This document shows, piece by piece, positions 25,806 through 30,638 of a DNA stretch of 32,000 nt; the first letter of the stretch is position 1; the number at the start of each line of letters is the position of its first letter. The notes beneath the pieces are model-generated. The model searched no databases and was not told the origin of the DNA. It was given only the letters and a program-made list of their open reading frames with translations. A program made the translations under genes and the position numbers. Origin of the DNA: Alkanindiges illinoisensis DSM 15370 (GTDB lineage: Bacteria > Pseudomonadota > Gammaproteobacteria > Pseudomonadales > Moraxellaceae); the NCBI RefSeq assembly GCF_000619845.1, contig NZ_JHUX01000003.1:550064-582063 (forward strand), given 5' to 3'.

Positions 25806-25890
25806 GGGGGCGTGGCGGAATTGGTAGACGCACTGGATTTAGGTTCCAGCGCCGCAAGGTGTAAGAGTTCGAGTCTCTTCGCCCCCACCA
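25806..25890 (+). tRNA. tRNA-Leu (anticodon UAG)
   Basis: Hand-folded cloverleaf. Acceptor gggggcg/cgccccc, D-arm gcg-gaattggtaga-cgc, anticodon stem ctgga/tccag with loop ttTAGgt, long variable arm (class II tRNA), T-arm aagag-ttcgagt-ctctt, discriminator A and encoded CCA. Very close to E. coli leuW as I recall it. Confidence 0.95.
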
Positions 25891-25906: not shown

Positions 25907-27115
25907 TCAATTACTTAGTCTGAGCTTACCCCCTGTGGGCACGTTTTGGGCACGTTTCTCTAATTTTGCAATCTCCTCTTTATTTTTGTCACTGTTAATC
26001 CAGCGCGCGTATCTTTTCATCAGCATGACCAGACTATGGCCAAGCTGATCAGCGACATATACCGGATTTAAGCCACTCATCAAGCAAACCGTCGCATAAG
26101 TATGCCTTGTGTTATATGACGGCCTGTAGCGCAAGCCTGTGGCTTTAATCGCAGCTTTAAAATGCTTATATAAAGATTTCTGCGTGTTGTAGTTTTCATT
26201 AGTCTCAGCACAAATAAACACATGGTCATATTTGAGATAACTTAATTGCTTGAGTTGCTGGAATGCTTCAAAAGCCGTTTGGTTTAAATCAACAAACCGG
26301 TCTTTATTGGTCTTTGTGCTGTCCTGCTGCACACCATTCACCCGACCCTTATTGATGTAGATTTGCCGATTCACAAAATCCACATCCTGCCAGGTGAGGG
26401 CAATCAGTTCTGAAGGCCGGCAACCAGTCCAGAACGCCACAGTAAAATAAAGATAAACCACTGGCCGCTCAGTAATACACTGGCTCTTTAACCATTGAAG
26501 CAACAAGTCACGTTCACCAGCAGTGAAAGGATCGGGGAGTTCCTGATTGTTCTTCTGGTTCTTTAAGCGTTCAGCCGGGTTCTTATCAATTACCTCATCA
26601 TCAGCAGCCAGCTCGAACACCCCACGTAACGGAATTAGGGCATCATTCCTGACCTTGGCCGATGACCACTCACGGCCATTAACTGCATTACGCAGCATCT
26701 GGCTGCTAATGTCATCTATCGGCATTTCTGCTAGTAGCGGCATCCAGATCCGCTCCAGGATGGACAGGTATTTTTCCTTGGTTCCCTGTTTATGGTTAGT
26801 CAGGTTAAATAGGTACTGCTGGGCATAGTAGGCAAATGTCGGAACACTGGTCGGAGAGGTGATGTTTGGATCTTCCTGGCCATTTTCAAATGGCCGGCCA
26901 GTGACTTCCTCAATATCAGCATGCGTTAAAATATCAAACTCTATTTTCTTGATTAGCTCTTGTCTAATCTTAGCTGCCTTGGTGAAGTTAGTATGGGTGT
27001 CCTTGAGTGGAAGGACGATCCACTGGCGTTTGCCGTTCCATGTAAAGTTAATCTGGATTTTTCCATTTTTTGCTCTTGTGCCGCGCGGTAGCTCTGAGCC
27101 TTCTGCATTACCCAC
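25907..27115 (-). CDS. int: Tyrosine recombinase / phage integrase with N-terminal arm-binding domain
   Basis: 402-aa ORF with a GTG start. N-terminus LPRGTRAKNGKIQINFTWNGKR is arm-DNA-binding (DUF3596-like). Catalytic residues are present (GCRPSEL Arg, TRHTYAT His-x-x-Arg context, LGHS His, KRYARW Tyr). Confidence 0.95.
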   Translation of the reverse strand: MGNAEGSELPRGTRAKNGKIQINFTWNGKRQWIVLPLKDTHTNFTKAAKIRQELIKKIEFDILTHADIEEVTGRPFENGQEDPNITSPTSVPTFAYYAQQYLFNLTNHKQGTKEKYLSILERIWMPLLAEMPIDDISSQMLRNAVNGREWSSAKVRNDALIPLRGVFELAADDEVIDKNPAERLKNQKNNQELPDPFTAGERDLLLQWLKSQCITERPVVYLYFTVAFWTGCRPSELIALTWQDVDFVNRQIYINKGRVNGVQQDSTKTNKDRFVDLNQTAFEAFQQLKQLSYLKYDHVFICAETNENYNTQKSLYKHFKAAIKATGLRYRPSYNTRHTYATVCLMSGLNPVYVADQLGHSLVMLMKRYARWINSDKNKEEIAKLEKRAQNVPTGGKLRLSN

Positions 27116-27285
27116 TTGTTATAACCCTTAATTGAATAGCTGAATTTGCGTTCTGAAAGTTGGACCCACACAAGGCCCTCATCCCACAATGGACGTAGAT
27201 TTTTTAGATTGGTAGGTAACTCACCCGTGAGTTCACAAAACCGTTCGGCTGTTACCCAGTCAACAGCATCAACTATTATAGTCAT
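26953..27285 (-). CDS. xis: Excisionase-like protein
   Basis: 110-aa ORF. The first ~60 aa (DWVTAERFCELTGELPTNLKNLRPLWDEGLVWVQLSERKFSYSIKGYNKWV) follow the excisionase-like winged-helix pattern. The last ~54 codons overlap int in another frame. Confidence 0.65.
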   Translation of the reverse strand: MTIIVDAVDWVTAERFCELTGELPTNLKNLRPLWDEGLVWVQLSERKFSYSIKGYNKWVMQKAQSYRAAQEQKMEKSRLTLHGTANASGSSFHSRTPILTSPRQLRLDKS

Positions 27286-27454
27286 TGCTCACCTCTCAAC
27301 CGTCTTAAACTATTGCCGCTAACGATTTCGCGCGTACCATCTGCAAACTCAATTTCGCGGCTGTTCTGTGTACCGTGTGCGATGATTCGACAGGGCTTGC
27401 CGTACATCTGTGCTCGCTTTTCATTGTTCTTCCAGGCATAGTAGTGAGTCATCA
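27282..27454 (-). pseudogene. Small phage ORF split by a 1-nt frame change in an A-run (or two tiny overlapping ORFs)
   Basis: Hand translation. ATG 27454 with a good SD (aggaag) gives MMTHYYAWKNNE, then this frame runs on to a TAA at 27305 (49 aa). A second frame reads ..KRAQMYGKPCRIIAHGTQNSREIEFADGTREIVSGNSLRRLRGEQ and ends in an ATGA overlap with the xis start. The two frames join at the run gaaagc (plus-strand ttt at 27418..27420). Confidence 0.4.
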
Positions 27455-27496
27455 TTACTTCCTATGTAGGATGCCCGTCAAAGCAGGGCGGTTGGG

Positions 27497-27823
27497 TTAA
27501 ATTCGGCGTTGATTCGCCTGCCGGGTAGTATTGATTGAATAGCCTTTAGCCTTGGCACGACGGATTGAACGGCCAGCAATGTCACGGAAATCGTTATATT
27601 TGCCTTGCAGCACATCCTTAATATTGTATTTAGGCTGTATGCATTCAGCGTCAGTCATGGCAACCCAGCTGGCGTCTACTTTCTTAAAAACCGTTTGGGT
27701 TTGAACATCGAGGCGGTAAGGCTTACCGGCAATGTGACCGGAAATGCCTTCACCTGGCTTATAAGTGCCGAACACCCAGAACGGGGTCGGATATATTTTG
27801 GGAGCGGTGGCGCGGGCGTTCAT
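27497..27823 (-). CDS. Hypothetical phage protein (108 aa)
   Basis: ORF from the track. Its ATG overlaps the stop of the upstream 44-aa ORF (TAATG). The C-terminus is basic. No family recognised. Confidence 0.7.
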   Translation of the reverse strand: MNARATAPKIYPTPFWVFGTYKPGEGISGHIAGKPYRLDVQTQTVFKKVDASWVAMTDAECIQPKYNIKDVLQGKYNDFRDIAGRSIRRAKAKGYSINTTRQANQRRI

Positions 27824-27957
27824 TAGAAGAAGCCCCAGTTGTGCAGGCCATAGCCGATGGTAAATAGCAACGTACCCAGGCCACCAGCAAAAATTTTGGC
27901 ATCGTTAGCAAATGAACTAACATCCGTCGCTTGCAATTCCTGCGTTTTGTTATGCAT
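27823..27957 (-). CDS. Small membrane peptide (44 aa), first ORF of the leftward early operon
   Basis: Below the track's size cut-off and translated by hand: MHNKTQELQATDVSSFANDAKIFAGGLGTLLFTIGYGLHNWGFF. It has a strong SD (aggag, plus-strand 27970..27974), one C-terminal hydrophobic helix, and a TAA overlapping the next ATG. Confidence 0.5.
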   Translation of the reverse strand: MHNKTQELQATDVSSFANDAKIFAGGLGTLLFTIGYGLHNWGFF

Positions 27958-27996
27958 AATCTTCTTACTCCTAATACCCCAAAAGTTAGGTGTCAT

Positions 27997-28032
27997 GCCT
28001 CCGGTTGCTTCGACTCAACGCGGGGGCTTTTT
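27997..28032 (+). terminator. Intrinsic-terminator-like hairpin on the + strand, inside the leader of the leftward operon
   Basis: gcctccg (27997..28003) pairs with cggGggc (28021..28027) with one G.U pair, a 17-nt loop, then TTTTT (28028..28032). No + strand gene lies upstream. Confidence 0.4.
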
Positions 28033-28060
28033 ATTGCCTGTGTTTTGGCTTGATAAATCT

Positions 28061-28089
28061 ATTATTAGGCATACCTAAATAAAAGTAAA
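28061..28089 (-). promoter_or_regulatory. Candidate leftward early promoter (PL-like)
   Basis: On the minus strand: TTTACT (28089..28084), 17-nt spacer, AATAAT (28066..28061). The context tgcctAATAAT.gattt is shared with the rightward promoter at 30328..30345. Confidence 0.45.
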
Positions 28090-28102
28090 TAGGTTTACCT
28101 AA
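28065..28102. promoter_or_regulatory. Two repressor-operator-like palindromes (OL-like)
   Basis: TTAGGcataCCTAA (28065..28078, perfect) and ATAGGtttaCCTAA (28089..28102), centres 24 bp apart. They overlap the -10 and -35 of the PL candidate. Confidence 0.55.
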
Positions 28103-28173
28103 TATTTCTCATGAATTTCTGCTATATTAAAAAAAGAAACCCGGCACATGGCCGAGTAGAAAAGAGGTGGTTT

Positions 28174-28668
28174 ATGCAATTTGAAGATTTTGAGCAGACT
28201 GAAAAGCATATGCAGAAAAATAAATATGATGGGATCTCGATGCGTCATATATCTAATGAACAGATTGTTTCATTTGAGGCAAAAACGCGTCAGCAAATTG
28301 CACAGGCTTTTATGACTAGTGGTATTAGTCAACCAAAAACATTGGCTTATTTAATAGATCAGTTCTTTGAATTAATTCAATCAGGCACAAGTAGTGTAAA
28401 TAGAAATCTAATTGATTTTACTGAAAATTCTTATAAATTACCTGAAATTAGAAGTAAATTTCGGCAAGAAAATAGACTGCGTTTACTTATCGAATTCCTT
28501 TCGTCTGGAGTAAGGAATATAGCTTACCTGGGTTATGTAGTAACGCGGTTTGACCACTTAATTGCAACAGGTGAGGATAGTTTTCCAGAAACTCCTGAAC
28601 TCCTACAGCTCTTGCCCGATCATAAGGTACACCCATGTAATGAACATGAATGGTTTTGTGTGGATTAA
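28174..28668 (+). CDS. Hypothetical protein (164 aa from ATG 28174; frame open from 28111)
   Basis: Strong SD gagg (28164..28167) 6 nt before ATG 28174. AT-rich, no family recognised. The 3' 182 nt overlap the convergent ORF 28487..28882, so one of the two ends is uncertain. Confidence 0.5.
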   Translation: MQFEDFEQTEKHMQKNKYDGISMRHISNEQIVSFEAKTRQQIAQAFMTSGISQPKTLAYLIDQFFELIQSGTSSVNRNLIDFTENSYKLPEIRSKFRQENRLRLLIEFLSSGVRNIAYLGYVVTRFDHLIATGEDSFPETPELLQLLPDHKVHPCNEHEWFCVD

Positions 28669-29503: not shown

Positions 29504-30241
29504 TTAATCAAAATCATTAAACCGCCCCACTACCTTGCCTACTAATCGGCAATGTTCATTAACTGGCATTAGCCTGGGTTGCCAGTTTGGATTTAAAGGC
29601 CGTAAGTAATAATTACCATCTTCAACAACCAGTTCTTTAAAGGTTGCTTTTTCGTCGCCATCACAAGCCATAATGACCAGATCACCTGTATGCAGTTCAT
29701 CAATCTGGAAAGTGGGATTCACATAAATACGGTCATCAGGCATGAATTTTGGTTCCATGGACACGCCATCAACAATAAGCGCAAAGCCGTATTTACCAGC
29801 CTTGGGATTATAGGGAATCCATTCAATCACACGAGATAAATCACCAGACAGAACCTCAGTGTAATCGCCAGCAGAAACCCATGAAATCACAGGGGTTTGT
29901 TTGGATGGTGGCAAGCCATCATGTCTTACAGGTAAATCCCGGATGTCCTGCTGCTGTGGCATACCTAGTGACTGGCTTTGTGACTGACCAGATTGGAATT
30001 GATGCTGGGTTTGGGAGGGGCGCATTTCGCCAGTACCACTAGCCAGCCATAAAGCATTTACACCTAAGCACGTAGCAGCCTTTAAAAGATTTTCACCTTC
30101 CATTGTTTTTGACTTTCCGCTTAGCCAGTCACTTACTGATGGGGGTTTGACCCCTACACAGCGTGCCAGCTCAACACCCTTCATTTTTTTAGGAGTTGCT
30201 TCTTCCATCGCAAGTTTAAGGCGCTCAGCTAACGTTTTCAT
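29504..30241 (-). CDS. cI: CI-like prophage repressor (N-terminal HTH, C-terminal S24 LexA-type autopeptidase)
   Basis: 245-aa ORF with an HTH region (GVELARCVGVKPPSVSDWLSGKS), a Gln/Ser-rich linker, an Ala-Gly cleavage context (WVSAGDY), the Ser nucleophile in DGVSMEP and Lys in LVGKVVG. Confidence 0.92.
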   Translation of the reverse strand: MKTLAERLKLAMEEATPKKMKGVELARCVGVKPPSVSDWLSGKSKTMEGENLLKAATCLGVNALWLASGTGEMRPSQTQHQFQSGQSQSQSLGMPQQQDIRDLPVRHDGLPPSKQTPVISWVSAGDYTEVLSGDLSRVIEWIPYNPKAGKYGFALIVDGVSMEPKFMPDDRIYVNPTFQIDELHTGDLVIMACDGDEKATFKELVVEDGNYYLRPLNPNWQPRLMPVNEHCRLVGKVVGRFNDFD

Positions 30242-30271: not shown

Positions 30272-30334
30272 TTAGGAAATCCTAACATAAATAAAATTAG
30301 GAATGCCTATTGATTATTTATAAGGATTGCCTAA
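30272..30334. promoter_or_regulatory. Three repressor-operator-like palindromes (OR-like) between cI and cro
   Basis: TTAGGaaatCCTAA (30272..30285, perfect), TTAGGaatgCCTAT (30297..30310) and TAAGGattgCCTAA (30321..30334). Centre spacings are 25 and 24 bp. Confidence 0.6.
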
Positions 30335-30338
30335 TAAT
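30310..30338 (+). promoter_or_regulatory. Candidate rightward early promoter (PR-like)
   Basis: TTGATT (30310..30315), 17-nt spacer, AATAAT (30333..30338). It lies upstream of the cro SD aggag (30351..30355). Confidence 0.5.
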
Positions 30339-30362
30339 TGATTTATTGTTAGGAGATGCAAG

Positions 30363-30638
30363 ATGACAGATGACCAACTCATTAATGCATTGGGTGGCTG
30401 TACTGCTGTAGCCAATTTTTTAGGAATTAAGCCTCCGTCTGTAAGTGGATGGAACTCAATTCCTTTGGATAAAAAAATTTTGCTAGCAGTAATTGCGGAA
30501 GATCATGGCATTTGCACCCGCAAAGAACTTTTTCCCGATTCTTATCAGAATATTTGGATTGAATTACGTCCTGAATTTAACACTGCTTCCAGTCGAAAAA
30601 CCAAGTTAGCCACCTCTGTAAATGAACGTATTTCCTGA
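30363..30638 (+). CDS. cro: Cro-like HTH regulator (YdaS family pattern)
   Basis: 91-aa ORF divergent from cI. LGGCTAVANFLGIKPPSVSGW ... ELFPD parallels E. coli YdaS (GGQSAMARLLGVSPPSVNQW ... ELRPD) as I recall it. Confidence 0.8.
   Translation: MTDDQLINALGGCTAVANFLGIKPPSVSGWNSIPLDKKILLAVIAEDHGICTRKELFPDSYQNIWIELRPEFNTASSRKTKLATSVNERIS

Follow-up and report, generated by a model that had tools for sequence, protein, structure and literature searches.

At the start of a 44-aa peptide ORF in a Moraxellaceae prophage, one strand carries a ribosome-binding site and the other a promoter-like pair followed by a terminator. The locus raises the question of whether the second strand specifies an antisense RNA and, if so, whether this RNA acts as the antitoxin of a hok/sok-type pair or as a phage antisense regulator, the two analogies offered by the original prediction. 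The window, i.e., the whole stretch of 32,000 nt that was analyzed, lies on contig 3 (C3) of a Moraxellaceae genome and carries a prophage arm at a tRNA-Leu gene.

The leftward operon of the prophage arm

The following features define the arm and its control region:

25806-25890: tRNA-Leu gene, followed by the prophage arm, which is all on the - strand
25907-27115, - strand: integrase (Pfam match)
26953-27285, - strand: excisionase-like ORF (PHROG match)
27282-27455, - strand: orf57, in the leftward operon between orf108 and the xis-like ORF
27497-27823, - strand: orf108 (108 aa), second cistron, its start overlapping the stop of the peptide ORF
27823-27957, - strand: 44-aa ORF, first cistron of the leftward operon, with a polar N-terminus and a hydrophobic C-terminal half
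27968-27972, - strand: Shine-Dalgarno (SD) core AGGAG, 10 nt before the ATG of the 44-aa ORF
28061..28089, - strand: PL-like promoter TTTACT-17-AATAAT, inferred start near 28054
28065-28078: operator TTAGGcataCCTAA, of the same kind as the three sites in the cI/cro gap
28089-28102: operator ATAGGtttaCCTAA, of the same kind as the three sites in the cI/cro gap
28130..28157, - strand: intrinsic terminator upstream of PL, ending the cI-side transcript
29504-30241, - strand: CI-type repressor with HTH and S24 domains (Pfam)
30280-30346: three TTAGG-N4-CCTAA palindromes in the cI/cro gap
30363-30638, + strand: cro-like gene, right of the CI-type repressor

The two TTAGG-N4-CCTAA operators (28065-28102) sit over and between the PL promoter elements, and the PL operator region aligns with the cI/cro gap as an inverted repeat (61 nt, 74%). 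A leftward promoter overlapped by cI/cro-type operators is the arrangement of a lambdoid PL/OL; since the operators are common to PL and the cI/cro gap, the leftward operon can be assigned to the PL type under repressor control, in agreement with the original prediction, which had called it a PL operon. The - strand terminator at 28130-28157 separates this operon from the cI-side transcript and is kept in two MAGs (G031 and G002) and at the locus of a second prophage (L002). This second prophage resides in the same genome (C3:224436-224494, BLAST); it shares the leader and antisense module, but its operators are different.

The region beside OL contains a further conserved element, an extended -10 (TGCTATATT, 28120-28128, + strand) kept in L002, L138 and G031. 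It stands directly before the hairpin 28139-28157, which is the - strand cI-side terminator, and may drive a + strand cargo gene at 28174-28668, divergent from PL and adjoining OL.

The 44-aa ORF looks like a real gene, judging by its good SD, the stop/start overlap with the next cistron and a homologue at 80% identity. Its position at the head of the leftward operon and the hydrophobic character of its C-terminal half, both put forward before, were borne out: this half is glycine-rich and moderately hydrophobic (best 19-aa Kyte-Doolittle mean 1.31), and the TAA of the peptide overlaps the ATG of orf108 (TAATG). The SD had also been recognized correctly, with coordinates (27970-27974) that were 2 nt off. 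The one homologue, P0002, is likewise 44 aa long and differs by conservative changes with the same hydrophobicity pattern. Searches of Pfam, PHROGs and NCBIfam, toxin families included, returned no match for the peptide at E <= 0.01, and an Atlas search yielded sub-threshold leads only and no family. The related loci described below encode small peptides of 51 and 67/70 aa, for which homology with the 44-aa peptide or with each other was not established (16-30% identity); the alignment of the 67/70-aa family (A4), used as query, found no related loci in metagenome or viral contigs. A longer, 57-aa reading from the in-frame ATG at 27996 was rejected: this ATG, in the hairpin flank, is separated from GGAGG by no more than 1 nt, and it is not conserved, since G031 and L138 either lack it or have it in another frame. 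The 44-aa start is therefore preferred.

A predicted antisense RNA over the leader of the first cistron

On the opposite strand, the following elements were delineated:

27931..27936, + strand: -35 hexamer TTGCAA, inside codons 8-9 (Leu-Gln) of the 44-aa ORF
27955..27960, + strand: -10 hexamer CATAAT, its CAT being the reverse complement of the peptide ATG
27967..28035, + strand: predicted 69-nt cis-antisense sRNA, with an inferred start and an end at the U-run
27967..27993, + strand: stem-loop 1, its 5' arm ACUCCU being an anti-Shine-Dalgarno sequence
27997..28035, + strand: stem-loop 2 and U-run, the intrinsic terminator of the sRNA (hairpin 27997-28027, U-run to 28035)

The + strand promoter is thus expected to yield an sRNA of ~69 bases (27967-28035), the exact 5' end being part of this prediction. 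The RNA would cover bases 27967-28035 of the PL 5' UTR, which extends from about 28054 to 27958, and its nt 2-6 are complementary to AGGAG (27968-27972). The two hexamers and the 18-nt spacer between them are all present as originally described. In the single sequence they do not stand out, as a promoter scan found 6 promoter-like sites per 2 kb vs 4.5 +/- 2.2 in shuffled sequence, which is chance level; it is the comparison with related loci that lifts the pair far above chance.

For the 69-nt RNA, one dominant two-hairpin structure is predicted (frequency 0.55), with a folding energy of -21.9 kcal/mol (z = -2.77; 2 of 200 shuffles were equally stable), and the mRNA leader on the opposite strand has an unremarkable fold (z -0.69). 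The terminator hairpin of the window is more stable on the + strand (-15.7 kcal/mol) than on the - strand (-12.6 kcal/mol). The + strand intrinsic terminator that had been noticed from 27997 onwards was confirmed, with its U-run reaching 28035 and its hairpin covarying in relatives. The statement that no + strand gene lies in between also held: no plausible ORF falls inside the predicted RNA, and the two listed + strand ORFs that overlap it (27857-28078 and 27931-28053) begin upstream of its 5' end.

A family of 42 loci in Moraxellaceae

When 397 Moraxellaceae genomes were searched with the region by BLAST, the operator, hairpin and RBS module was matched in the two MAGs, and the hairpin pattern recovered an IMG/VR contig (L138) with the second type of module, which has different operators. 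At these three loci and in the second copy, the leader is followed by a different small ORF (70, 67 and 51 aa) that has a C-terminal hydrophobic stretch and a stop that abuts or overlaps the next gene. The shared + strand plan consists of a -35 (ATGACA, TTGACA or TTGCGG), a 17-nt spacer, CATAAT or CATACT over the ATG, 6 nt, a 5' hairpin beginning with ACUCC, and a terminator. In total, the hairpin pattern scan matched one viral contig and two genome contigs, the latter being G031 and G002, and gave no match in metagenome contigs; the operator pattern found no match in viral contigs. A scan with a short terminator pattern was discarded, its matches (at least 120) being unrelated terminators, and the BLAST matches L011 and L016 were rejected as unrelated, the former being a terminator and the latter a gene start.

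A covariance model (R1) was built from the five RNAs of the window, the second copy, G031, G002 and L138, and a search of 149 Moraxellaceae genomes with it added nine loci, all at E <= 4e-9. A second model (R2), built from these 14 loci, was applied to 148 Acinetobacter species genomes, 21 of which contained between one and three copies each (30 matches); as a specificity control, it was run against 150 genomes of other gammaproteobacterial families and gave 0 matches. The window RNA scores 65.1 bits (E 5e-15) in a covariance-model match and 61.4 bits against R2; its stem-loop 1 is unlike that of its relatives in sequence and aligns poorly. Altogether, the family comprises 42 loci with 38 distinct sequences, all from Moraxellaceae and from several genera.

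Rfam release 15 gave no match at the gathering score for the window RNA and eight related loci, and at E <= 10, with the sar model included, returned a single chance-level match, sbrA (18.6 bits vs a gathering score of 45; E 0.19). A literature search that took in Acinetobacter transcriptome papers retrieved no description of such an RNA. A conserved family of predicted cis-antisense sRNAs at the PL leader of Moraxellaceae prophages, absent from Rfam and undescribed in the literature found, is therefore well supported.

A similar plan was noticed by eye in the Acinetobacter phages BUCTT20, AM106 and YMC/09/02/B1251, in which TTGnnn-17-CATA(A/C)T lies over the first-gene ATG and is followed by a short RNA with a different sequence and a terminator just before the operators. 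The sites are located as follows:

L171, about 2436-2512: BUCTT20
L172, about 2343-2432: AM106
L173, about 366-455: B1251

The covariance models did not detect these versions, so the resemblance is one seen by eye only. Since the models miss such divergent phage versions, the RNA design probably extends beyond the 42 loci.

The predicted antisense promoter is kept inside unrelated coding sequences

DNA upstream of model position 1 was excluded from the covariance model. In this excluded part, the -10 reads CATAAT at 36 of the 42 loci and CATACT at six, its CAT coincides with the start codon of the opposite ORF at all 42, and the distance from the -10 to model position 1 is exactly 6 nt at every locus. 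The -35 is TTGnnn at 40 loci and ATGACA at the other two, with a spacer of 17 nt (30 loci) or 18 nt (12 loci). It falls in codons 7-9 of opposite ORFs whose N-terminal sequences form 17 unrelated groups, and TTGnnn was present in 16 of these; by our own rough estimate, chance would provide it in a few per cent of independent sequences when two positions are allowed. With TTG recurring in 16 of 17 unrelated N-terminal groups, neither chance nor protein constraint explains the -35, and we regard the conserved promoter as the strongest argument for a predicted antisense RNA.

The target side is also recurrent. At 26 of 38 loci, the top-scoring - strand promoter-like site has its end 12-35 nt before the sRNA 3' end, and an S24/CI-type gene lies within 1.5 kb, on the expected side and strand, at 12 of 41. 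As far as predicted elements can tell, facing promoters with an antisense RNA over most of the early-left 5' UTR are the general arrangement. Such conservation shows that the + strand RNA, as modeled, and its promoter are under selection, and it leaves the target unspecified: a target in trans would produce an identical footprint, and so would promoter interference alone, so conservation by itself is not proof that the PL leader is the target.

Because the -10 coincides with the start codon context and the -35 with codons 7-9, the evolution of the operon's first gene is constrained. In the 67/70-aa peptide family, Val8 is invariant (A4: P0003-P0009, L002 and L138) and its codon coincides with GAC of the antisense -35, the coding strand being TGTCAA or TGTCAT in the members compared as DNA. 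The antisense promoter may thus keep Val8 fixed in this family.

Covariation and strand specificity of the RNA structure

Pair statistics were obtained from the 38 distinct sequences, whose alignments were fitted to the model structure, which flatters the pairing figures. On this basis, 97.1% of cells were paired vs 83.8% in shuffles, 12 of 20 pairs were changed on both sides, and 92 compensatory cells were counted vs 23.4 in shuffles, a number reached by 0 of 500 shuffles; slid partners gave 38-46% pairing. In alignment A8, helix 1 had 96.2% of cells paired, with both-side changes in four of eight pairs, and helix 2, the terminator, had 97.6%, with both-side changes in eight of 12. The anti-SD ACUC(C/A) is found at the RNA 5' end at 40 of the 42 loci.

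The strand was assessed with a test that is independent of the bias from model-fitted alignment. G·U pairs make up 17.2% of cells, which would leave only 80.4% of cells paired on the complementary strand, and the + strand fold was the more stable one in 38 of 38 sequences (mean -23.7 vs -15.0 kcal/mol). By these predicted folds, the structured molecule is the + strand RNA. The central proposal of the original prediction, a cis-antisense RNA over the SD, is strongly backed by a promoter, two hairpins and a terminator conserved at 42 loci, as a sequence-based prediction.

Unrelated first genes opposite the RNA

The ORFs opposite the RNA differ from locus to locus: small membrane peptides of 44-94 aa, and at other loci signal-peptide or lipoprotein-like proteins of 111-144 aa or soluble proteins of 85-167 aa. 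As the same RNA and promoter lie opposite unrelated first genes, the RNA belongs to the PL promoter/leader module and not to the peptide, which is the main reason to favor a phage antisense regulator over a type I toxin-antitoxin pair. In the second prophage, the first gene is again a membrane peptide:

L002:301-1477 region, - strand: 70-aa membrane peptide and, 1 nt beyond it, an ERF-family recombinase (Pfam E 3e-22)

ERF recombinases are typical early-left genes. Beyond the PL of this second prophage, a Cas2-like 91-aa ORF was seen (PF09827, E 1.7e-6; L002:1857-2132, - strand; C3 about 224806-225081).

Many Acinetobacter relatives have an N-terminal signal peptide in the first gene. They include a 144-aa family (L177, L179, L181, L183-L185, L191, L192 and L195) and 115-aa first genes (L178, L187, L190 and L199), and the first gene of L188 has a signal peptide together with a lipobox-like LSGC. 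Secreted proteins or lipoproteins as first genes under a PL-type promoter were unexpected.

Proposed mechanism and alternative explanations

Taken together, the predicted RNA looks like a sar/OOP-like cis-antisense repressor of the early-left operon and a component of the phage switch, and we consider this the best reading. It has the marks of RNAs of this kind, namely its own predicted promoter on the opposite strand, a short, non-coding, terminator-ended product and complementarity to the SD. Most likely, it would pair with the PL leader, mask the SD of the first cistron and lower expression of the operon by coupling, polarity or duplex cleavage. A sigma-70-type + strand promoter, with its -10 over the start codon and its -35 in the first codons, would produce the ~69-nt RNA; the 5' hairpin would present the anti-SD, and the terminator hairpin would stop the RNA just short of the PL promoter and operators. 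Being complementary to bases 27967-28035 of the PL 5' UTR, SD included, the RNA could block ribosome entry at the first cistron, the 44-aa peptide. The loss would spread down the operon to orf108, orf57, xis and int, as the stop of the first cistron overlaps the next start and loss of translation would pass downstream; the effect could be enhanced if RNase III cut the duplex, or by Rho polarity. In the lysogen, leaky PL transcripts would be neutralized by the RNA, and upon induction strong PL transcription would outnumber the RNA and overrun its promoter. What the sequences themselves show is the geometry, the conserved promoter, the covarying and strand-specific structure and the tie to the PL leader instead of a single protein. 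That the RNA is produced, where exactly it begins, its pairing with the leader, and the direction and size of its effect are what we infer here.

A hok/sok-like type I toxin-antitoxin system, with the 44-aa membrane peptide as toxin and the antisense RNA as antitoxin, would account for a small peptide with a hydrophobic C-terminal half (P0002 being alike) whose RBS is covered by an antisense RNA, and small membrane peptides (44-94 aa) do make up about half of the first-gene families that face the RNA. The same module nevertheless lies opposite soluble, signal-peptide and lipoprotein genes elsewhere, so that the RNA, facing 17 unrelated N-terminal sequences, is not linked to one toxin family. 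The peptide gene heads an operon under operator control that reaches to xis and int, rather than forming half of a self-contained two-gene module with a separate, constitutive and stable toxin mRNA, and Pfam, NCBIfam and PHROGs gave no toxin-family match for it, the Atlas leads being sub-threshold. The hok/sok-type analogy therefore fared poorly and we regard this explanation as unlikely; the analogy with a phage antisense regulator, offered alongside it, fits a conserved RNA and promoter at the leader of a CI-type-controlled PL. That the promoter-like and terminator-like matches are functionless products of chance is extremely improbable. Shuffled sequence has as many promoter-like sites in a single-sequence scan, but promoter, spacing and covarying structure are kept at 42 loci in several genera, with 0 of 150 controls matching, which effectively refutes it.

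Two further explanations accept the module and differ in what it does. The + strand promoter might act by interference or insulation only, through occlusion of or collision with PL or by shielding PL and its operators from + strand transcription, the RNA having no pairing role. The two promoters do converge, their inferred starts being separated by about 87 bp, and the terminator always ends the + transcript just before PL. Stem-loop 1, however, is dispensable for termination and yet conserved, with compensatory changes in four of its eight pairs and strand-specific G·U pairs; a conserved hairpin that termination does not need, with the anti-SD in its 5' arm, points to selection on the RNA product and makes interference alone improbable in our view. 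That the RNA has its main targets in trans, either the PL leaders of related phages that are co-resident or superinfecting or else host mRNAs, appears quite improbable. This reading is suggested by two copies in one genome, in two prophages with different operators, by an RNA core kept across different operator sets, and by non-cognate RNA-leader duplexes of -50 to -76 kcal/mol vs -28 +/- 4 for shuffled RNA. These duplex energies, however, ignore intramolecular structure and only reflect homology, as do those that make cross-pairing of the genome's own two copies energetically plausible (-63 and -71 kcal/mol vs -28 +/- 4 for shuffled RNA), and the perfect complementarity in cis offers the simplest target. 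The core hairpins kept among prophages with different operators, together with two coexisting copies, nevertheless make cross-immunity conceivable: the RNA might form an immunity layer across repressor-immunity groups, with which a resident prophage could silence the early-left operon of a relative that shares its host or superinfects it. We put this forward tentatively, as a rather doubtful reading.

Significance

The regulation of temperate phages of Acinetobacter and its relatives is poorly understood; these phages move genes in a hospital pathogen and are mined for therapy. An antisense RNA in the early-left leader would be a second lock, beside CI, on excision, recombination and other early functions. 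The covariance model, with its 42 examples and a precisely placed predicted promoter, describes an element that is missing from Rfam and is directly usable for prophage annotation and induction work. The locus is also a clean example of a promoter kept inside unrelated coding sequences.

Comparison with known systems

RNA-OUT of IS10 is a structured RNA of ~70 nt, transcribed from a promoter just inside the target coding region and complementary to the 5' end and RBS of RNA-IN. The facing promoters and the structured ~70-nt RNA over the target RBS are shared with the prophage module; IS10 differs in being a transposon, the part of RNA-IN covered by RNA-OUT takes in the start codon and the extreme 5' end, and there is no homology. 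In phages P1 and P7, the target of the c4 RNA is icd, a small first ORF whose RBS it blocks; translation of icd is needed for ant expression, and c4 thereby forms an RNA layer of immunity. Blocking of the RBS of a small first ORF on which a downstream gene depends, as secondary RNA control of phage immunity, would be common to both systems. Rather than being a fully complementary cis-antisense RNA, c4 is released by processing of the target's own strand, upstream of the target, and works by means of short complementary boxes. The cross-immunity reading considered above resembles c4, but the RNA here is cis-encoded at PL and spread through Acinetobacter prophages. The hok/sok system is similar in its small hydrophobic peptide gene and in a short antisense RNA over the translation-initiation region; in contrast to it, the RNA family described here is untied to any peptide family, and the peptide is a cistron of a larger repressor-controlled operon.

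The OOP RNA of lambda is 77 nt long and antisense to cII (PMC5415839). It is likewise a small, terminator-ended cis-antisense RNA of the immunity/early region that exerts secondary control, but its overlap is with the 3' end of cII, its mode of action is RNase III cleavage and not an effect at the RBS, and it lies on the rightward side and is unrelated in sequence and structure. The sar RNA of P22 is antisense to the RBS of ant in immI (PMC5415839). Its target is thus in a separate immunity region, whereas the target proposed here is the first CI-controlled early-left gene, by OL; the host range here is Moraxellaceae, the start codon falls within the -10, and the Rfam sar model gave no match. 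In design, sar is nevertheless the closest of the known systems: like the predicted RNA of the window, it is ~68-69 nt long and cis-encoded, starts from a promoter inside the 5' part of its target, crosses the RBS to an upstream terminator, and provides, as the predicted RNA would, a second layer of control on a repressor-controlled operon.
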